A stretch of DNA of 57,059 bases, counting the filler, from Catajapyx aquilonaris (Eukaryota), in NCBI GenBank assembly GCA_000934665.2. It is 3 parts of 3 records of this genome, joined end to end, with 100 filler letters (N's around TTAATTAATTAA, not from the genome) between each part and the next. Parts side by side here need not be neighbours in the genome. Positions count along the whole stretch, not along the records: positions 38,139 to 57,059 come from JYFJ02006573.1; 2 more parts are not named here. The stretch is one strand, 5' to 3'. The position numbers were made by a program, and so were the translations under genes. Of this stretch, positions 4,201-45,568 are shown piece by piece. Each line of letters starts with the position of its first letter. Positions within the stretch are counted from its first letter, which is position 1. Under the pieces are notes generated by a model that ran no database searches, was not told the origin of the DNA, and saw nothing but the letters and a program-made list of their open reading frames with translations.

Positions 4201-7200
4201 ACGACCTCGTTCAATTGATTTGCATTTAAACATGGAAGAGAGTGGCAGCAAGGATGTTAGCTGGTTCAAGAGACAAGATATTGGCAAGTTGAAGAAGTTT
4301 GCACAAAAAATAATTAGGCCTCACGATACTGTGCAGGATGTGAATATTGTCCCTGAAGCTTGGCCGAAGGATGAAAACTCATCACAGGGTTACATGTCAT
4401 ATTCGCGTAAGGACTCTATTCCAACAGATTCCTGGAGGATGATACCATATTGGATCATTATAAGTGAAGAATTTAATGCAAAGTGGGATTCTTATAAAGT
4501 CATGAAATTTCTCAGGTGAGATATAATGTATGAGTGTAAGATAGGTTATTTCTAGCAGTATTAATGTCATCAATCCTGCATTTAAATCAACTTTTAATGA
4601 AATTATATCAGTCACATTTTATGTTTTATACCGTACCATGAGTCTTAAATCAGTGGTCTATGGACCTGTGTGATGGGGGTTGCCAAAATATTGCCTGGTA
4701 AAATGACTGGGATATGCAATATACTTACTTGTATAATACAGTACGTACATGATCTGTTATGGCTGAAAAGTTATGTGAATGTTCAGATATCTCAATCACT
4801 GGCCAGCGGTGTAACCGATAGACCACCATGCCGCCCTCTTAGCAGCTATTAATCCAAACTCAATATGAAATAAAGGCTGAGAAATGCCTTATTTGTTGCT
4901 GTGCCAGTTTCCACAGGATTGTGAACCAGAATTGCATATGGGTACCATGAAGATATAATGGTCCATGTATGGTGACTTGTTAGTGCAAATTGACTGGACA
5001 TTTAAAAAATGGGAAAAATAACAACGAATTTGAAAATGTTGGCTGAAAGTACTAATCCTCTTAGCAATACGTTAAGTAATATATTGGGATATCAAATAAA
5101 TAAGTACCAATCACTTTCCTTAATTGCATTTGGTTATTTTCCTACCACTTGTACTTAACCTAAATAAGACACAATAACAGAATATTCAAAATGGTATGTT
5201 TGGTATTATTAGGGCTTAATAAATCACGCTATTGTAGCAGACTGGGACACTGAGATGAATTTGCAGTCTTAGTTAGACCCAAACTTCGCAGGCTGTTGCA
5301 CCTCAANNNNNNNNNNNNNNNNNNNNNNNNNNNNNNNNNNNNNNNNNNNNNNNNNNNNNNNNNNNNNNNNNNNNNNNNNNNNNNNNNNNNNNNNNNNNNN
5401 NNNNNNNNNNNNNNNNNNNNNNNNNNNNNNNNNNNNNNNNNNNNNNNNNNNNNNNNNNNNNNNNNNNNNNNNNNNNNNNNCCCCCCCCCCCCCCCCCCCC
5501 CATCGGGGATGTCCCAAGGGAGAGAGAGGAAAATCATATCATCTGTAGTGTAACAGGATATAAAATTAATATCCATATTAAAGTCTAACCCCCTTCCAGT
5601 AGGCCGAGTAGGGGATCTCCGTAAAAATTAGTTCCTTCAAAGCTCAGACAAATGTCAATGGAAAGACTTTCATGTCGGGAGACCAAATGTGCCAGGGGTA
5701 GGAGCACTCTGTACTGTACCAACCTACCCCATGACCTAACTTTCCTTCCCGCTGGATACAAGCCTAGGAAAGCAGGTAAAAGTGTGGGGTCTCCCGAAGT
5801 GAAAGAGTAGCCATGACAACCCTTATACATGTACTACTATCTGTGCTGTCTAATGTGGAATACTCCAGTGCAGGCAGTGCTGTTACTCCCTATGGGGCAT
5901 TGGATAACATTGTTCTTGATTAATTATCTTGTATCACTACACTCTATTTTAAAGATATTTTCCTTGGGGACACCCCCGACAGGGACATTTTTTCCGGGGA
6001 TGTCATATGTCGGGGACGAATTTCAGGGGACAAAATTTCTTGTCACCATAAGTTACTGCACTAGCAGCAGAACCAGTTCTTCGCAAGGCTGGTTTCCATG
6101 GTAACTCCTTTGGGTATAAAATTGGTGTAAGTGGGTATGAAATGGGTATATACCATGGGACCCCCCCCCCCCTCCCCCATCCACCTGTACAAACAAACTT
6201 CGCCTTTTACATAATTATGTAGATATGTAGATATTGTACTATTTTTGCTTTAAAATATTGGGTGTATGCTCTGAGAGTTATTAATTCTTGACTTTCCAGG
6301 TATTTCATGATGGAGAGAGCTCTAAATCCAAGTGGTACTTTCCTGAAATATTGGGAGATCTTCCGCATAATGACCATATTTGTTATGTCACTGGTGCTTC
6401 CTGTATTGGCTATTCACAAACCACATGATATTCTGGAATATGTCATAGCAGTGACCTTTGATCTCACCATCTATGCAGACATGTGAGTTTGTGTTGCTGT
6501 TTTGCTGCTATCCGTAAACTTTTGCTTGCACTGGTAATGCAATGTCCTTACAAACAAATACCACTTCCCGAAACCCATGCTGCTGGGATATACATGGTGT
6601 TCGGAAATGAGATACCAGCATGATACTAAAGTTTGATGACACCTTTCCGAATCGATAAGTTCATGCATTTGGTCTCATGCAACTAATGTACTACATAGGC
6701 TATCAGTGATTTGTCTAAACTTTAAATGCATTGTCCTGTGAGGACTAAAATGTGGACCAATTTTACACATAGTTATGTCTCACTATGACCTATACTGTAT
6801 AATGCAGATCATAATGTTCAGTATTATTCATTTAATACCTAGTGAAAGGCAATAACAAAACACTATGTGTAAAGATCATTTGGAACATGTGAAGCACTGA
6901 TTTTTAATACACCACATGGAAAGTTTTGCTATTTGATAGAATCAATGTCATGTGAATTTCTTGGTAGTTGTTCTGTTAATTGTGAGGTTACTTGTCAAAC
7001 ACAACTTTTTGGACATAGCAGTATATTTGGAAAGACTAACCCTTACTGGCATGCGGGATGCGGCAGGGGGAGTGGTGGCTGGGGACAGCTTGGCTATGTC
7101 GCAAAGGCAGATTGATTTTTTGGATTTTGGAAGGGTATGCTGTACCAACCTAACCTAACCAAGCCTAACCTTCCTTCCTTGCGGATACAGACCTATCTTA

Positions 7201-18115: not shown

Positions 18116-19036
18116 ATTCCCTATGATGTTAAAATGTGCCACTTCGCCTACTCGTAGGAACTCTCAAGCCAGAAAGGTTATCATGGAATAAGAGACAGAT
18201 CACAAGAGAAATATAAATAAAAACAGCCTTTCCTGTATTCGTTCTCTCTTTTCTCTCTCCATCTATCCATCTGTATACCTTATTGTACAATATAGCCATA
18301 CGGCCTTGTTTGCTTTGGTTTCTTCCTTCTCAAACAACAGACAAACAAACAAACAAGAGGAATATGAAGTATGTGGCCAATCTCTGTCAGCAGGTGCAAA
18401 ATACAAATGTAATTTTAACTATGAGTAAAAAGCTTCATAATATTGTCCAATCACTTAGTTGTGTACCAGTAAAGTGGTAAGTGCCCAAATGGCTAAATGG
18501 CACATTCTGTCATTCTTTGATGAAAGATGACAACCAATATGTTTCCCCACTGATAGCATCATTGCGCTCCTCATTCACATGCAATGTTATAGGTCAATGG
18601 TCAACACTAATTACAGTGCTTAGTAACTCATAAAAATAATTAATTTTTAAAACGTTGTCAGCACCAACTATGAGTCGATAGCATGCATTTACTAGTACAT
18701 AAGAGATTATATGTGCATTAAAGTAGCTGTCTTACTTGTGCAAGGAAAAGTGCCTCCACCTCCACCACTGATAGCTCTTTCTTCATGCCACATTGCACCT
18801 TCCACATTTTAAATGTGAGACCTTTATGTCAAATTAATCGTCAAAATCATCCACAACTCATGCAATCTATGACTAAATTCTGGATGTAGGTACTGTAATG
18901 ATATGCTAAGATATGTTCTTGTGTAGTATCTCCTATNNNNNNNNNNNNNNNNNNNNNNNNNNNNNNNNNNNNNNNNNNNNTTAATTAATTAANNNNNNNN
19001 NNNNNNNNNNNNNNNNNNNNNNNNNNNNNNNNNNNN

Positions 19037-19273: not shown

Positions 19274-20787
19274 CCGGGGTAGTGCTGACCTCATCAGAGG
19301 TATGTAGCACGGACCTTTATTTATTTTTGTCGTGTACATTGGAGCCTTTATACGTAACGCCCGGGCCCACGGGCAGGATGACAGGAGGGGATGTGCAAGG
19401 TGCAGTGCAATGTCTTTATGTGGCCATTTTTAGTGAACTCCCCGGGTGGTTTAGTCTGTAGGAAATACCACCCGAGACGAAGCCAGAGGTGACCCAATGA
19501 ACTCTGCACGAGATGAAGGGGGTGTCCCCGGGTTGGGATCGAACCCGGGACCTTAACATCCGTGGGCGCGTACGTTACCGCAGCACCACTTCGCCTCCCC
19601 TCATCCCACAAATTAGAAACTGCATTGGAACTATCAAGGAGATAATCATATTTTTTCGCGAGTCCGTTTTATGCCGCAACGTTATTGCTAACATTCCTAA
19701 ATTGTGTGAGACTAAATGGTCAGAGAAGTACAAATGCATTTCTGTCTTTAAGGATCACTTCGTTGATATTGTCGATGCATTAGAGACATTAGCTGAAGAG
19801 GGAAATGCAGTAACTAGAAAAAATACATATCAAATGCATGCAGCGGCATGCAGATCTTCATTTGTTGTGTCAATAGCATTAATTGCGAAGTATTCCGCTA
19901 TACTGGAACCCGTAGCAAATACACTTCAATTGAAGACACTTGACATAGTCAAAGCCAACCAGCACATTTAAACTATTCTCGAAATGCTAAGAGTTCATCG
20001 GGAAGATGCGGAGAACGTCACAGCTGACGTTTTGAAAGAAGCAGGTGACATTGCGAAGCATTTGAATGTTGATATAACCGCCACTCACGTTGCTGGCCGA
20101 CAAAAGCATAGAAAAGCAACCCTCCAGCCGAAAATCTATCCGAATTTTGGCGAAGGTCTCTAATAATTCCTTACTTGGATTCCATCATATCATCTTTAGA
20201 AATGTCAGATGTTCTGCAGACAAATCGCCTGCATTTTCATTGACACATTTCCATCCGAGTAACATGAGAGATGTTTCAATGGAGGAATGGAAAGAAAGTA
20301 CTTCATTTTGTGCAACTTTTTACAATTTGGAAGCAAGTTTGGATGGTATCGAAGGAGAAAGGGAATTGTGGTTCAAAATGTGGAATGGGGTACAGGAAGC
20401 ACTAGACATCATTGAGGTTTTAAAAAAGAGCAAATTGTTTTTCCCCGCCATTAAAAAAGCACTACTGATATTGCTTTCACAGCCCTGCACAACAAGCACT
20501 ATAGAGCGTTCATTCAGCTCACTTCGCCGAATTAAAACATGGCTAAGAAGCACTATGGCTGAAAATAGGTTGAATGGGTTAGCCATGCTAAGCATTCACA
20601 GTCAATGGGTTTTCGGAAACAAGGAACAATTGGTGGAAGCTATAATCAGAAAATTTGCAAGTAATCCTCGCAAACTATTGTTCAAAAATTAATTCGGTTC
20701 TTACGTTATTGTGAATTTCTCTCTCTCTCTCTTCCCCCCCCCCCCCCCCNNNNNNNCCCACCCCCTCTGCCGCTGGATACACCCTTG
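19037..20787 (+). mobile_element. hAT transposon remnant (ZMYM1/PRKRIR-like transposase, disrupted)
   Basis: Motifs HCSSHKLNL, LCETKW and the C-terminal hAT dimerisation motif PCTTSTIERSFSSLRRIKTWLRSTMAENRLNGLAMLSIH. Contains stops/frameshifts and a SINE insertion. Probable right TIR CTGGATACACCCTTG ends at 20787; the 5' part is lost in the gap. Confidence 0.88.
19201..19600 (-). mobile_element. tRNA-derived SINE family B inserted in the hAT transposase
   Basis: B-box GGTTCGATCCC on the - strand, (ATT)n tail, and perfect 15-bp TSD TCATCCCACAAATTA (19186-19200, 19601-19615). Confidence 0.92.
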
Positions 20788-37488: not shown

Positions 37489-37590
37489 CCTTGTGTGAAG
37501 AGGAAAAAACATGACTATGGAAGAGGAAAAAACATGACTATGGAAGAAGAAGAAGAAGAAGAAGAAGAAGAAGAAGAAGAAGAAGAAGAA

Positions 37591-37631
<41 letters not shown>
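37489..37631 (+). repeat. Short retroposon tail: 23-bp tandem duplication + (GAA)n(TAA)n
   Basis: GAAGAGGAAAAAACATGACTATG twice, then a compound microsatellite, flanked by ATATGTGG (37481-37488, 37632-37639). Confidence 0.6.
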
Positions 37632-37634
<3 letters not shown>

Positions 37635-38492
37635 TGTGGGTAATGCTTTCACCCCTTCAATTATCTTCAATTTATCCAGTAATGTCATTTTGATGCAACA
37701 GAGTCATGGAATGTGTGTTTACAGGCATGGGCTAGCTATTTATGAACAAAAATCCCAAATCCCAGACCAAGGCCAGGGACCATATTATCCCTATATATAT
37801 AAAGCTCAAAATGTGTACATATATTTATTTATCACGCCTAATTAAGCCGCTTCCCGGGCACGGAGAGAGCTCAAATTTCTCAGAGCCATGTCTTACATAT
37901 CACTGACCCCGAGAAAAGTCCCAAACCAGAACTTTTTTGAGTCTAAGGGGGGTTTTCAGCAGAATAAGCAATTGCCTAGCAACCCTGGCTGTCAACAAGC
38001 CCAAATGATGGATCTGCCTCTCTCACTCACGTTTTAAANNNNNNNNNNNNNNNNNNNNNNNNNNNNNNNNNNNNNNNNNNNNTTAATTAATTAANNNNNN
38101 NNNNNNNNNNNNNNNNNNNNNNNNNNNNNNNNNNNNNNTGGATCTTATGCCCTCCATGCTGAAGAGTATCCTTCCGCGAAAAAGTCATTTTGACCAAAAG
38201 GTGGACTTATGCCCTTTCCATTCTGGGTGATTCAAATGGTCTTTCTTTAGAAAATAAAATACATCAACTTGCGTATAGCATTGACGTTATTTTTGAAATC
38301 ATGTGTTGCGAAATTTCCTTGCATGACAGTGGGTCGAATATAGCAGGTGCTATAGAATGGAGCACGTGGTTAGGGGCACAACAAGCTACAAAAAAAAATA
38401 ACTGCGATCGGGTGATATCAGTTATCAAAAAGTGACCCACAAACTACCTGTATATACTGGATATGGGCAGTGTAACACGCTATGTACCTGGT

Positions 38493-38600: not shown

Positions 38601-39244
38601 TGATAGTACACCCGCAAGCATAAAGATGGAGACAGCAGGCCCTCACCTTCGGCAGGCTGTTCTGCCAATCTCAGCTATTACGGTATCAAATACACGAACA
38701 CGCGCCTGAAGCAGCTAACTCGGTCCAAAAAGAGTTCATTAATTTGAGTTGTATGAAAAAGGTCATCTTCTTCTTTATGCTCACGGGGGTACATGATGGG
38801 ACGGTACCTTTTTAAATATGTTAACATCAAATTGCTCCTCCCAGGTATTTTGTTAGTCTATCTCAGAATAATTGTACTCAAGCAAGTGAGTGTGCAACCC
38901 CTCACCATGTCCAGTGGAAGTGTTGGTTGATTATTATGTGCAACACCTTCCTAGGTACCTATGTTTTGTTCCATAAGATGTTTACAGATTTTTTTTTGTA
39001 AAGGAGATTATTATATCCTGCATCAAGTGTGCAGAGCTGATTGATCAGTGAGCTTTGAATGCAGCATTAGCTTCTTCAGAAAGACTCCTTGTGAGGCCAT
39101 GATATTATGCAAGCTGCAGATTTGTATTGCTGTGCACTGTTTTCCAATTTGCATTCATTTGTCAAGCAGTACAATTGGCTTACTTTTTTCATGGGTGTGG
39201 AGGATAAGGGAAAAACAAAACATCTGGCTTTCGTGTATTTTCAG

Positions 39245-42200
39245 GAAAAACCCCCTCCCGGTCGGTGTGTAGGGGTGTTTGGTCTAAGCTTACGCACGAC
39301 CGAGCGAGACCTTCGAGATGTGTTTTCTCGTTTCGGCCCGCTTGAGGACGTGGATATAGTCGTAGATGCACAGGTAAAGGGCATTTGTGGCCACCCTATT
39401 TTCATTTTTCCCTTTCCCCCCCTCCCCCTCTTTTTGCTCTTCTCCAACTAGGAGGACCCCACACCCAGCCGATGTTTAGGCGTATTTGGCCTGAGTCTGT
39501 ACACAACTCGGCAAGAGATACTCCACATTTTTTCCAAATACGGCCCAGTCCAAAAGGCTGACCTGGTCATAGATGCCAAGGTAAATTATTTGGATTTTCA
39601 TTACCCTCCCTCCCAACCTTAAATGTGTCCACATTGATTTAGTATTGGATTGGTCCCAATTGGTCATTCTTAGCCCCTCCTGTATTTTCATTTCACCAAT
39701 TTACTTTTCGGAGCCTGGTTTTGAGCAGGTCAAATTACGCCCCTTTTTTTTCATAGATTTCTTAGTTCCGGCGGGTTTGAGGGGGAGTCAGTGTGGAGAA
39801 ATGCATTTTTAAGATCCCCATTTTAGTACAGGAAGGGCATGGGTTCCAAGATGGCCAACCACATTTAGTTGTATTTGCATGCAGTGTGCCATGTGTATAT
39901 TTTACGATACAGTAAAACCTCTATAAGTCGAATCTTCATAAGACCGGGAAAAAACTTTGACTTATATATAGAAGATTCGAGTTAGAGAAGTTTGGAATTT
40001 TTAAACACGCAACTGTATAAGGAAGCCTACCTTTATACTCTCCGATTCACATAAGTCTAAACCTTTTTGGATATTCATACGCCCAAAAGTAGTGGCCCCC
40101 ATGCCCTACCACTCCTCACAACAAAATGCACAGTTTGTGTAGCGCTCCAGCTACCGCATGGGCTGCCCATGATAATTAGGCATTCGAATTACATGTGCCT
40201 GCACTTCGAGAAAGCCAGTGATACGGGGACTAATTTTGTGGTGGCTCACGCCCTTAGGCGTATGTATATCCAAAAAGGTTCAGACTTATGTGAATCAGAG
40301 TGTCCAGCGACAAAAGGTGTTCAAAACGTTAAAATAACTGTCACTATCACATTTACAATGTTCCTCATTGTTTTGCAGTAAAAAAATCTCCGTTATGGAC
40401 ATTTGCCTACTCATAGATTCAAGGATTCAATTGCCACAACAGAGTCAAACACTTCTTTCGGTACGTCTGGTAGACGGAGATCAGGAAATTTAGCCTTTCT
40501 GTACTTGTGGCCTACTTTCGCTGGGAAATAAGACAATTTTCCGTACTCACCAACGTGAACTTCAAATTAGGGAGACTCAATCGTAAGGCCCTGCCTTCAC
40601 TTCGAGTTAGGGAAGTTTATTTCCTATTAATTTATTTTGCATTGTGACCAACCTAGCTCATAATTTTCTTCGACTTACAGAGAACTTCGACTTATAGAAG
40701 TTTTACTGTGTTTTGTCTTAGGAATTGAGTCTGCACGCCATTTTGAAAGTGGGAAATCACCAGGCCCCTCCTGCACTACATGTACTTGGGTGAAACTTGA
40801 CTATGGGCAGTGTCATTCAAGATTGCAGGGGAAGTTTGGGCATTGCCATGGTGACTTAATGTTTCAACCTGTAGTGGACAGGGTTGCAACAAGTTGCCAT
40901 GACAACAGCCAAATTTCCGCTGCCTTGAGTGAATAGGCCTTAGTACCCTGTGACATCAAGTGCACTGATCATGCTGAGGAACCAATTCTGGACTTTTGCG
41001 TTGGTTAAAATTGGCATAAAAAGTTGGAAATTATTCACACTTTTTTGTTATTCTAGATCCAAGCTCATGAGTCAGCTTCCACCCACTGCCTTTTATTCAT
41101 ATCACCCCCAATGAGAACACAATCACGCTAACTTCTTGTGATACCAAGCTCACCAAGGGGCTTGCATACCATGCATTTGATAAAAAGATTCCTGATCATG
41201 AGCAAGAAGTGACTAATTTATATCTGCGAGCTTTTTATTGACCCAAGTTTTGAATGTTGAATTTGGTATGGAGTGGCATTGACATAAGGTGGTGGGTGGA
41301 GTCTGATATCAGACCTTGGATCCAGAATATCTCATGAACAGTGCACATGGTGATGCATGAAATTGGTTATAGTTTCCTATCTAGAGATAAACACGTGACT
41401 TGAAAGATATTGTACTAATCATCAGAAGTTTATCTGTAGAATATATAGCTATAATGTGGATGATGAAATTGTACCTCATGCAATGCATTTCAAGTTCATG
41501 TGTTAAAGTACCTCATCTCCACCATTTCAAAACACAGTGTCTTGACATTGGGTGGGAAATTGAGAGTCGGGGTGGACGGAGGATAGTTTATGCTGGTAAA
41601 CCTCTGTGTATACCCTATTTCATGACCTTGCTCAATACAGAATGGACACTGATATTTGCAAATGTGCAGATGCAGCGTTTTAGAATGGTGGGGCCCTACG
41701 GTAGAGGAAACATCAAAGTTGAAGGGGTCAGTGCATCATCGGGTATCAATACCTTTCTTTCTGTCAGTGGTAAATGATAACAATGCTGATGGGTTGAGTA
41801 CATCCAACAAAACTGGCGATGAAATTGTTCAATTTTGGTACTTGTAATGGTAGCCATTGTGACCAGTTCTCGTTTGTCTTGCATTAATATTGACGGAAGG
41901 TTTATAAAATAATGACAGTCAGGTGTTAATGATGATGCCTCCAATATAAACCATCTGTCACAAAATATTTTAGAATGGGGAGGGGAATCTGCTGATGCTA
42001 ATAACTTTTTGAGTTGTCACTTTAAATCAGTGCTTCTCAATTTTTTTCATTAGTGACCCCAGAAAACTGTGTCGTAAAATTCGCCACCCCCCGCTTCCCG
42101 ATTCAACCCTACCCTCCCTCAGTGATAGCTCAGTGATGACAATAATCGCTATATGAACACATCTCGTTTACGGGCTTATTTTACCAAAGGGAGAGAATCA

Positions 42201-44097
42201 TTTTGTAAAAATAATTTGTTATCCTCCCTCGTGACTCAGTTTGGGAAGCCCTGCTTTAAATGTTCAGGTCATGTGTCAGTTATAGTTACTGAAAAACAAT
42301 GTTGCACTGAGCCCTTTAATGGTCAGCAGCTCAATGTTCTGGGCTTGCATTTTGTAAGTTGAATTAGCACAGGAATCCTCAAACAGTGTTAAGTGCTGCA
42401 ATTTGAGTGTCCCTCTGCTAGACTGGAAAATGGTATGCACTAGTTTTTTGCAAGCATTAAATTTATTATGCACCTTTATTTGCACGCATTTTAAAATAAT
42501 GAATCTAATGCATAATGCCCCTTCCCATCCCACAATCCCTGTTTCTTCCACTAGACTGGGCGTTCGCGAGGCTTTTCATTTGTGTACTTTGAGAGCCTGG
42601 AGGATGCCAAGGCAGCCAAGGAACAGTGCACTGGAATGGAGATTGACGGAAGACGCATCCGCGTTGATTACTCCATCACCCAAAGGGCCCACACACCAAC
42701 CCCTGGTATCTACATGGGCAAGCCCACATAGTAAGTGCATAACATTCTTCAAGGTACCACCAACACTAAGTTTATGTGGCTATCGTGCACTCCTGCGGGT
42801 TGGGTGGCAGTTGGTGTGGAGTGGGGGTGGAGATGTGTGGAAGTGCGGCAATGCCCCAGCCTGAACCGCCAAACGGCAGGGTTGTTTGGGGGTCGGTTAT
42901 GGGGGGGACCGCCCTCGCAATTCGCGGTTCATTGTATGGTGCATGACATGTATGTATGACATGCTTTAACCGAAATAAATATGTAGCTGGAACTGGAACT
43001 CTTTGTCTTGGTGTTGCTGTGTGGCTTTTTGTTACCGCAACAATACTGTACTTTGTTGTGGCCATGCCAAGCAAGACATGTCGTCTTGCGAGATTTTTTT
43101 AGTTCATTGCAGAGCGTTAGCGGAGCTGGGATCTTATTGTGGGTTTGTATACGCAACAATACTGTCCTTGTTGTTCGCGGCAGGCCAACAAACATTATTG
43201 TGGCCTTGCCAAGTGCTACACAGCCACGAGAATCTGTCCCGGCCGTGGTCCCGGAAATACACCACCGCCATCCCCCCTTCCAACCAATGCCCCCCCACCG
43301 ACTCCCTCCGAACAGCCGAACGAACCACCGAACAGCACCCACCACGGCGTGGTGTTGCCGCACTTCAGTGCCACTCCACCCCGTCACTCAACCGCTCAGA
43401 GAGTACCACTTCCGTTTATATTGGCAAGATACACAAATTTTTGAAATTCTAGTAAACTTAAATAATTGCATATTTATAAACATTAGGTGCCAGTTTCTAA
43501 CCTGTAACATTTCTTGACTTGTAGCAGTGGGTACCGAGGTGGAGGGTATAGGCGCTCGCCATCCCCTTACTACAACAAGTCCTCCTCCTCTTCATCGCGA
43601 AGGAACCGCTATGAGCGTTCACGCTCACGGAGCTACTCACCTCGTAAGTAGGCTTTTGCAAGTTTGTGGAGGAATAAATTAATGTCATTCATCATGTAAT
43701 AAGTGTTTGACCTGCCCTGTCTCTTCCTTAAAATTGCCATTCCCAAGTTCCTTGATTTCCAGAAGTTTTGACCAGAGTGTTCCATTACTGTAATTGTAAT
43801 TTGTTTTTTCCCTTCACCCGAAAGTGCCATGTATCACAAATCTGGCATCTAAGGAACAAATAGTTAACAGTAAAAAAGAAATTATGCATTGAGATCATGC
43901 AGTGTCAAAATTTAAGTTCTGGAGGCTAAAGTGAATTTTTCAAATTGGATAAGGGGCTTCAATTATGGAGCACTTTATCTTCTCCCCTCCACAACAATTG
44001 TCTTTCCTCTTTTTGCCTTTTTTTTTTTTGTCTTTTCCTCTCTCATTACATTCACCCTTATTTTTCTCTGCCCTGTCCCATTCCAGGTCGGTATTAA
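39245..44097 (+). CDS. tra2: Transformer-2 splicing regulator (RRM + RS2), N-terminal RS1 exons not found
   Basis: Exons 39245-39373 or 39452-39580 (RCxGVFGLS), 42555-42730 ([41 protein letters not shown]), 43525/43528-43643 ([17 protein letters not shown]), 44087-44097 (RRY*). These are diagnostic Tra2 RRM, linker and C-terminal motifs. Confidence 0.95.
39452..39580 (+). CDS. tra2: Duplicated alternative tra2 RRM exon (copy B)
   Basis: 129 nt, phase 0/0, with AG and GTAAAT sites. Translates [43 protein letters not shown], paralogous to 39245-39373 (also 129 nt). Confidence 0.9.
39910..40708. mobile_element. pogo/Tigger-like non-autonomous element in a tra2 intron
   Basis: TA-CAGTAAAACCTCTATAAGTCGAA ... 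TTCGACTTATAGAAGTTTTACTG. Confidence 0.8.
41053..41326. mobile_element. Diverged MITE
   Basis: Imperfect TIR GATCCAAG..TCAGCTTCCACCCACTGCCTT / AAGGTGGTGGGTGGAGTCTGA..CTTGGATC. Confidence 0.5.
42028..42253. mobile_element. hAT (Charlie-like) MITE
   Basis: TIR CAGTGCTTCTCAA / TTGGGAAGCCCTG with 8-bp TSD CTTTAAAT at 42020-42027 and 42254-42261. Confidence 0.82.
42795..43396 (+). promoter_or_regulatory. Structured intronic RNA element in tra2 (long-range duplex enclosing repeated hairpins)
   Basis: G-rich 42795-42910 is complementary to C-rich 43270-43396 in nested order, with internal repeats CGCAACAATACTGT. Confidence 0.6.
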
Positions 44098-45568
44098 CAG
44101 CAGCCAGGTGGGAGCTTCTGGGGGTTCTCTTCACATTTTAGGCTTAAATGTGATTATTAACATTTAAGCAGGATAAGGGCTGCTGTAAAGCAAAAAACTC
44201 TGAATTGGTTGGCATTGCCTTTTGCTTTTGTTATGTAGCGCATATTTTCCTTGCTTGAATGTTCTTTTCTTTTCATTTTGCAATCCTGAATATGTGTACA
44301 AGTCTGAAATGTGCGGTACAATACCCAGCACTCTTTTTTTATCATGTTAGGGAGCAAAGTAACGTGTTAATTTTTAGCCAACCATTTCATTGTGGTTATT
44401 TTTTTTCTGCCTACGTTTTTGTTCACTGTAACATTGAGCTAGTGGTGTTTTTATTGGACAATTTGAACTGTCTTGAAGTAGAATTAGTCCCTAGTGGAGA
44501 AAACAACAACAAAGGAAGTTGTTTAACCCCAAAAAGATACAACAAAAAAATCACTATCCTAATAAACAAAAAGAAAAAAAAACTACCAAACTCTAATCCC
44601 ATTTTTACTTTCATTTTCATGAGGTGTAGAAGCAAGAGGTGTGGGATGAAGTAAAGAAGTTTTGCAAGTAGGAAGTTGCTTGAAGTGTGTTTAGGAAGTC
44701 ACTCATGGGGCAAGAGAAAGGGGCCTCCCCTGAAAAGGTGTCCGAAGTGAAGACCCACAGAAAATAACGAGAAAAAGAATACCTAAAACAAACAAACAAA
44801 TTAAAAAAGTGGAGGGAGGGGGTCGTAACATTGATTGGAAATGTATGTAAAAGAGCAAGACTTTCTTCCCCCTTGGAAGAAGGCAGTCTTTGGAAGAAAT
44901 TGTCTATGGGGTCCCAAGAAAAGAAAAATCGAATCCCGAAGATAATGGTAGAGGGGGTTCAAGAGAGAACATAGAAGTGGAAAAGTGGAAGAGAGGAGGA
45001 GGAGAAAAATTACGTAAGTTAAATTGCCCTGGTTTAGGGTTTTGCAAGTGGGATTAGTATGCCTTGTAATTATTTTTTAACACTTCTAAGGTGTTGGTAA
45101 CGAGCACCTCTGTAACGTGGCTGCGAAGGCAGCGGCGGTTCAGAGGTGCCCAAGTGGTTTGGAGAAACTTGGGAGTCCTTTGAGTGTGGTGGCTTCGAAA
45201 GCCAATTGCGTAACAAGTACTATTCATACTTGGTTTTCAAGGCACTGCACCTGGGTTCACATGTACAGAGTGCATTATTTACTCAGGAGGATAATTTTTT
45301 TGTGTGTCTTGACACATTTTAATTTCACTTGAGCGTGTATTTCACTCCCCCTTAATTGATGTCCTTTCCAGCCATCAATATTGAAGTTGCAAGTTGTGTA
45401 GATCTCTGTGAAGTCACTTGGTAAAGAAAAAAGTTATACAAAAAATCTCCAACATAAGGTGATTGGAAGCCAGAAGATTCACTTTGCATGTTGGGATTTT
45501 TGTGTACCCATGACAAATAAACACCATTTTATGAAATTAACATTGTATTTGACTAATTACAACTGGGG

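Follow-up and report, generated by a model that had tools for sequence, protein, structure and literature searches.

Does a single transformer-2 (tra2) gene hold two interchangeable versions of the first half of its RNA recognition motif (RRM), and is only one of them spliced into each mRNA? The question arises from a 57,059-nt stretch of DNA of Catajapyx aquilonaris (assembly GCA_000934665.2), which is analysed here as a whole and called the window. In it, two homologous exons of tra2 lie side by side on the plus strand: exon A (39245-39373), which encodes an ancestral-type first half of the Tra2 RRM, and exon B (39452-39580), which encodes a first half of the pterygote-insect type and is present in an observed mRNA. 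Tra2 is a conserved partner in the splicing module of insect sex determination and a general splicing activator elsewhere. An original prediction, made from the sequence of the window, had proposed that the two exons are mutually exclusive and give rise to two Tra2 isoforms. There is no doubt about the existence of the pair, the identity of the gene or the homology of A and B. We further consider it fairly probable that A and B are mutually exclusive exons, with one copy per mRNA, and that they represent an old tandem pair in the Tra2 RRM.

By its sequence, the gene is the transformer-2 of an arthropod. It encodes a single RRM with the unusual ribonucleoprotein (RNP) motifs of Tra2, for (V/L)GVFGL is found in A as well as in B and RGFSFVYF in exon C (42555-42730), which can be compared with L-G-V-F-G-L (RNP2) and R-G-F-x-F-V-Y-F (RNP1) in human Tra2-beta (PMC3045587). 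The best matches in the PDB are the human Tra2-beta RRM structures 2CQC, 2RRB, 2RRA and 2KXN (E 3e-11 to 5e-11). Many of the named database matches are transformer-2 or Tra2, and the remainder bear generic names (RRM-domain, hypothetical, unnamed, SFRS10) and contain the same motif; one fungal RRM protein stands at the bottom of the match list of the springtail query. The earlier assignment to tra2 is thus borne out by motifs, structural matches and named database matches alike.

Exons A and B are each 129 nt long, start in phase 0 and are separated by an intron of 78 nt (39374-39451, plus strand); these values, the exon coordinates and the start of the next exon at 42555 proved exact when the sequence was re-checked. 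Both share the same open phase and possess a pyrimidine tract and AG on the 5' side and GTAAA on the 3' side, the boundaries (marked by slashes) being attttcag/GAAAAA and GCACAG/gtaaag in exon A, and ccaactag/GAGGAC and GCCAAG/gtaaat in exon B. They are therefore adjacent homologous exons of equal length and phase, each with its own splice sites. Exon A comprises the N-terminal extension, strand beta1 with RNP2, helix alpha1 and strand beta2. Positions 3-33 of the 70 positions of Pfam RRM_1 are matched by each of the two exons (E 1.5e-6 and 1e-5) and positions 35-70 by exon C, so that A and B are indeed homologous alternatives for the RNP2/helix-1/beta-2 half of the RRM. The two copies are identical at 77 of 129 DNA positions and at 22 of 43 protein positions (51%), and both are open with AG/GT sites, which agrees with their earlier description as diverged but intact. 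Their differences are distributed over the first, second and third codon positions as 17, 7 and 28 (chi-square p 0.0017), the pattern expected of coding sequence under selection. The charge change that had been pointed out is real yet modest, with a net charge of -2 in A and 0 in B.

When the window was searched by tblastn with four Tra2 proteins, exactly two copies of the exon were found, A and B, and no third. A decayed third copy upstream of A was considered and rejected, since alignments of the upstream open reading frame (ORF) to A or B did not exceed those of shuffled sequences (845 and 1392 of 2000 as good). A separate observation concerns the 36 nt directly 5' of exon A (39209-39244), which in frame encode 12 residues that resemble the beginning of RNP1 in exon C, with the pattern G-basic-S/T-basic-x-x-A/S-F-V-Y-F-Q/E. 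Only 1-2 of 2000 shuffles of the ORF score equally, and tblastn gives an E of about 5-7 for the look-alike over the whole window. It may be a relic of a longer duplicated unit that reached into the RNP1 part and was later reused as the pyrimidine tract of A; equally possible, it may have arisen by chance in a T-rich acceptor.

Which of the two exons is used can be judged in part from the public run X1, which was compared with positions 38900-45400 and behaves as a transcriptome of the same species. One contig of 2425 letters (depth 47.8) fits the gene with 0 mismatches over 2115 placed letters. Its first 309 letters fall outside 38900-39450 and are followed by exon B (39451-39578, contig letters 310-437), then by 42553-42730 and finally by 43525-45333; exon A is skipped, and the joints 39580>42555 and 42730>43525 both have GT..AG ends. 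A B-only mRNA hence exists and is the main form in the X1 sample, and since the contig contains B without A, routine co-inclusion of both exons is refuted for that sample. As predicted, a 39373-39452 join is absent from this contig, which goes from upstream sequence straight to exon B. Of the two junctions that had been put forward as a check, 39580>42555 was seen and 39373>42555 was not, the latter in a single run with depth 0 on exon A; contigs lose rare forms, and the zero count in contigs does not prove that A is unused. Unique intron sequence in X1 is either uncovered or represented by small pieces at a depth of about 3. Within the intron between B and C, many X1 contigs pile up at 39768-41069 with 90-95% likeness, a summed depth of up to 182, irregular joints and free ends; they look like the product of a repeat family, either expressed or abundant, and not like part of the tra2 mRNA.

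The two copies have separate ancestries. A search with exon B (114 of 118 candidates passed) yielded, among its named matches, exclusively Tra2 of winged-insect orders, namely Lepidoptera, Hemiptera, Hymenoptera, Coleoptera, Odonata, Ephemeroptera, Siphonaptera, Trichoptera and Diptera. These matches are identical to B at 22-35 of 43 residues versus 19-25 of 43 to A; the identity of B reaches 35/43 to Lepidoptera and 29-31/43 to Odonata, Ephemeroptera, Hymenoptera and Coleoptera. Searches with exon A itself (5 of 12 candidates passed) and with the equivalent part of springtail Tra2 (40 of 41) led to springtails, vertebrates, unnamed transcripts and one fungal RRM protein, and winged insects were absent from their matches. 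Exon A shares 35 of 43 residues with the JGI protein P0001, 30 with springtail Tra2 and 30-31 with vertebrate Tra2.

This division reappears in a tree of 44 exon-equivalents, in which B falls inside a 19-row pterygote-type clade (99/84) and A is joined to P0001 (89/91) within a springtail-type clade of seven rows (94/93); one row of this tree, L053, is one residue out of register and has a very long branch. An approximately unbiased (AU) test on 25 rows, from which 19 rows including L053 were left out, rejected A and B as sisters (log-likelihood difference 26.5, p 0.0027). At the nine columns that separate the springtail consensus from the pterygote consensus, exon B shows the pterygote state in six and the springtail state in none. 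From the separate groupings and the rejection of sister copies we conclude that the duplication is old and that each copy, with relatives of its own, has been kept under selection. The age and conservation of both copies are accordingly supported more strongly than had first been claimed.

The constant part of the gene points to P0001 as well, with 94% identity over 70 columns and a pairing in the tree (SH-like approximate likelihood ratio test, SH-aLRT, 89), and is placed near Palaeoptera and springtails. Both P0001 and P0156, which belong to one cluster, have an exon of the A type, and so the nearest database relatives express the type that was not seen in X1. An A-only form is thus known as A-type proteins of near relatives, not from this species. 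Several metagenome contigs (loci L041, L042, L045-L047, L051 and L067) possess an exon-equivalent intermediate between the A and B types; these loci are sister to the pterygote-type clade (94/84) and could help to date the B type.

Elsewhere the two types were met singly. None of the 155 Tra2 proteins collected in the exon-A, exon-B and springtail-query searches has two copies of the motif, and of the suggested conservation across insect orders one part stood and the other did not: the B type is present in all sampled winged insects, and the twin pair in none of the 114 pterygote-type proteins. Two copies were likewise found in none of 80 metagenome loci (the best 80 of 203 relatives). These had been selected in order of similarity to exon A; they are for the most part A-type loci of springtail or annelid-like character, and B-type loci fell outside the sample. 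In the springtail-like loci L006, L007 and L009-L011 the A-type exon is followed by exon C within about 80-210 nt, with no B between them. In a mayfly gene model, the B-type exon is preceded by a retained intron of 63 nt, which leaves no room for A, and in hymenopteran and beetle genomic ORFs the first arginine/serine-rich region (RS1) is fused directly to the B-type exon.

Duplication of this Tra2 exon nevertheless recurs in other lineages. An all-against-all search with exon A gave 916 matches, and among the best 150 of these 11 two-stretch proteins of at most 400 residues were inspected. Two of the 11, P0158 (JGI) and P0161 (ENA), contain the exon-equivalent twice in tandem, with 10 and 4 residues between the copies; in P0158 both copies lie in one genomic ORF and are about 82% alike by hand count. 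The other nine have two whole RRMs each. Among the sequences compared, a pairing of an ancestral-type with an insect-type copy was seen only in the present gene.

How would exclusivity be enforced? The length of A and B is a multiple of three, double inclusion or skipping of both keeps the frame, and nonsense-mediated decay (NMD) can therefore not police the choice. The intron between A and B suggests another means. Its adenosines lie only at 39376-78, 39383, 39393, 39398, 39404, 39446, 39447 and 39450, so that upstream of B's acceptor they are found at -59, -54, -48, -6, -5 and -2, with none from -47 to -7. Apart from the three within 6 nt of the acceptor, the candidate branch adenosines are situated 20-31 nt (20, 25, 30) past A's donor, and the sole yUnAy match of the intron, TTCAT, places the predicted branch point at 39404. 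It is followed by a 41-nt A-free pyrimidine tract (39405-39445), one of seven A-free runs of at least 30 nt on this strand of the 57-kb window, and the intron is free of AG from 39380 to B's acceptor. The long adenine-poor tract and the AG-free zone are those of the steric class of exclusive exons, for which a minimum distance of about 50 nt between 5' splice site and branch point is given in PMC7969005. In front of the acceptors of A, C and D, adenosines are found at ordinary distances, from -18 to -44.

With all possible branch points of B at 20-31 nt from A's donor, this donor would be barred from B's acceptor, and we infer a steric block by which A cannot be spliced to B. Once the upstream exon is spliced to A, the donor of A would be unable to use B's acceptor and would join exon C; where A is skipped, the upstream donor would use the distant branch point together with the 41-nt pyrimidine tract, and B would be included. 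A second element may bias the choice. The upstream flank of A (39192-39243, plus strand) is complementary over about 52 nt to the beginning of the A-B intron (its first 54 nt, 39374-39427). The predicted duplex of -33 kcal/mol is equalled in 2 of 500 shuffled sequences and in 3 of 230 other windows. As a lead, this candidate stem would loop out A, cover both its splice sites and favour B. An RNA fold of the whole region 39150-39680 was no better than shuffles (z 0.48).

The swapped exon corresponds by alignment to residues 112-154 of human Tra2-beta and thus to the N-terminal extension, beta1, alpha1 and beta2. The differences between A and B are unevenly spread over these parts: they affect seven of eight positions in alpha1, four of seven in the alpha1-beta2 loop and three of five in the edge strand beta2, compared with three of eight in the N-terminal extension and one of four in beta1. 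Exons A and B agree at the positions that correspond to the RNA-stacking Phe123, to Gly124 and to Val150. The two proteins would share RNP2, RNP1 and both RS-adjacent parts, and their differences map to a face and an edge of the RRM that lie apart from the core RNA contacts. With the changed surface in this position, the swap is likely to affect partner binding or fine tuning rather than the specificity for GAA-type RNA. Two isoforms with different RNA or partner specificity had been suggested; a difference in RNA specificity is less likely given the same core contact residues, and a difference in the partner surface is likelier. A functional difference between the A and B forms would be expected on these grounds. 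For medfly, an AlphaFold model of the complex places residues 55-64 of TRA as an addition to strand 131-138, which is exposed on the RRM of TRA2 (about 100-180; PMC10380613). Judged by position, this modelled strand would be the beta2 that lies within the swapped exon.

The claim of mutually exclusive use is upheld as regards the B-only contig, the lack of routine joint splicing and the resemblance of the intron to a steric block; a transcript with exon A was not seen, and use of A would follow from its conservation. Several points weigh against exclusive use. The RNA data come from a single public run, kept as contigs, whose kind, tissue and sex are unrecorded, and the exon A bins have depth 0 in it, which leaves the use of A unseen in RNA of this species. 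The position of B's branch point is a prediction. The threshold of about 50 nt is a vertebrate one, and the arthropod limit may be lower; arthropods splice very short introns, and 30 nt may be near the limit rather than below it. The exon tree rests on 43 columns, and the hypothesis of the AU test was set up after the identities were known. At the nine diagnostic columns, exon A has the springtail state in four and the pterygote state in two, and is thus less cleanly typed than B. The P0001 gene could be A-only. Finally, the gene model is incomplete at its 5' end, no RS1 exon having been found in the window.

The alternative that best survives the evidence, unlikely in our view and yet a serious contender, is that exon A is a relic and the gene effectively B-only as in winged insects, with A as an undecayed remnant. 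It would account for the zero cover of A in X1, where the contig with B has a depth of 47.8 and some intron pieces reach about 3. It would also fit the absence of a tandem pair from the 114 pterygote-type proteins and the 80 loci (the loci say little on pterygotes), by which loss of one copy would be the common outcome, and an open frame of 43 codons is by itself weak evidence for use. However, the duplication predates the split from the pterygote-type clade, and yet A has remained identical to P0001 at 35 of 43 and to springtails at 30 of 43 residues. Its AG and GT sites are intact and its branch-point region is normal; had A been unused, it would not have lasted that long. The nearest relatives, moreover, express an A-type exon. 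We retain mutually exclusive use of A and B as the preferred reading.

A wider evolutionary interpretation, which we offer tentatively and regard as rather doubtful, is that an exon was replaced at the root of the winged insects and that the pair survives from the intermediate stage of this replacement. The insect-type B would have arisen as a duplicate beside the ancestral A, most insects would later have lost A, and the present lineage would still switch between the two, A giving a 'general' and B an 'insect-type' Tra2. With its changed alpha1/beta2 surface, B would be the form able to work with TRA-like partners in sex-specific splicing, because this surface includes the modelled TRA-docking strand. 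If this were true, the origin of the insect TRA/TRA2 module would be tied to one datable exon duplication.

That the choice between A and B is made by sex or in the germline, as part of the sex-determination cascade, we hold to be improbable. Tra2 acts in insect sex determination and is studied for this role in decapods (PMC8858584, PMC7363937), and the swapped part contains beta2, the strand on which TRA is docked in the medfly model (PMC10380613). In the same sources, however, Tra2 is described as non-sex-specific in insects (PMC10380613), and the crustacean tra-2 isoforms described differ at the 3' end, not in the RRM (PMC7363937). Very improbable, lastly, is that both exons are included or both skipped in a meaningful share of mRNAs, with the duplicated or missing half-RRM as a regulatory inactive form: the frame would be kept by the 129-nt exons, NMD would spare both products and a 78-nt intron is in principle long enough for arthropod splicing, but the dominant contig has B without A, the stretch from -47 to -7 of B's acceptor lacks adenosines, no candidate branch point is farther than 30 nt from A's donor and two motif copies occur in 0 of 155 Tra2 proteins.

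If A and B are indeed mutually exclusive exons of old standing, two types of Tra2 RRM would have to be distinguished, one ancestral and one of winged insects, with their main differences in helix alpha1 and strand beta2. The insect type would then probably have arisen by exon duplication and not by gradual change of a single exon, since one genome contains both types as neighbouring alternative exons. The locus would amount to a natural experiment, in which one gene combines the same RNA-contact core with a different back face and edge, and the partners that read the swapped surface (TRA-like proteins, other serine/arginine-rich proteins) would be directly testable.

The remainder of the gene was traced downstream of the pair. 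Exon C (42555-42730, plus strand) contains the constant second half of the RRM, from RNP1 to beta4, and the C-terminal extension, and ends in the donor ACATA/gtaagt. The last exon (43525-45333, plus strand) encodes an RS2-type tail with the stop at 43649-43651 and continues as 3' untranslated region to at least 45333; in X1 it is covered by one contig piece with no further joint. Its tail is rich in R, S and Y, aligns with the tails of sawfly, mayfly and P0001 Tra2 and thereby qualifies as RS2. A consensus-like donor (C/gtaagt) at 43647, just before this stop, is bypassed by the X1 contig; the Tra2 of relatives ends in RKYY, and an alternative short last exon is conceivable. Upstream, three scans of 39.2 kb revealed no RS-rich exon on the plus strand that could serve as RS1, and a weak 'SSRRR' match at about 30834 was on inspection not RS-like. 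The same upstream region contains, at 20078-20689 on the plus strand, an open frame with a hAT-family C-terminal dimerisation domain (PF05699, E 6.9e-11), a transposase relic. Long simple repeats of the GAA/AAT type occupy 37515-37650. Runs of N are located at 5307-5480, 18937-19036 and 38039-38138 and include two pairs of 44 N, 12 nt apart.

The Tra2 forms described from crayfish, shrimp and human all come from the same gene family, in which a single RRM lies between RS regions and a gene gives several mRNAs; those of crayfish are CqTra-2A/B/C (PMC7363937). The shrimp Pmtra 2 and PmOvtra 2 'paralogs' are presented as two genes with 63% overall identity (PMC8858584), and human TRA2B has a non-coding poison exon and not an RRM swap (PMC11829967). 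The mention of 'mutually exclusive' in the shrimp paper concerns fruitless, not tra2 (PMC8858584). These described Tra2 forms differ in their last exons, RS regions or a poison exon, and none swaps half of the RRM. A description of alternative RRM exons in tra2 was not found in full-text searches of the literature, subscription journals and isoform tables being outside this search.

Exon clusters of the Dscam1 type are governed by RNA pairing between a docking site and selector sequences. Their complementary intron segments bracket an alternative exon, which is paralleled by the candidate pairing of 39192-39243 with 39374-39427. In contrast to such clusters, tra2 has two exons only and no conserved docking site, and its candidate pairing is seen in one sequence.

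A closer parallel in mechanism is provided by exons 2/3 of alpha-tropomyosin and exons 4a/4b of OGDH (PMC7969005); steric exclusion in tropomyosin goes back to Smith and Nadal-Ginard 1989 (via PMC7969005). In both genes, as in tra2, the branch points of the upstream exon are normally placed, and a short intron with a long adenine-poor pyrimidine tract separates the pair. The downstream exon has its branch point far from its own acceptor and within 25-41 nt of the donor upstream, like the candidates for B. In OGDH and tropomyosin, however, the branch points were mapped experimentally in vertebrates, whereas those of tra2 are read from arthropod sequence alone.

By analogy, the closest known case appears to be that of exons Ab/3 of U2AF1 (U2AF35) in vertebrates (Kralovicova and Vorechovsky 2017, PMC5224494). 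This too is a splicing-factor gene with a tandem exclusive pair; the pair encodes RNP2 and the following helix of an RRM-type fold (the U2AF homology motif, UHM), has long been conserved and yields two isoforms that differ in a partner-facing helix. The differences are of degree and of control: seven residues differ in U2AF1 versus 21 of 43 in tra2, and U2AF1 transcripts with both exons or neither carry stops and enter NMD (PMC5224494), whereas the tra2 exons are multiples of three. If A and B are chosen as we propose, tra2 would be the second case after U2AF1 of a splicing factor that varies the RNP2/helix part of its own RRM by exclusive splicing, with the added interest that here an ancestral-type and an insect-type half-RRM are set against each other inside one gene.

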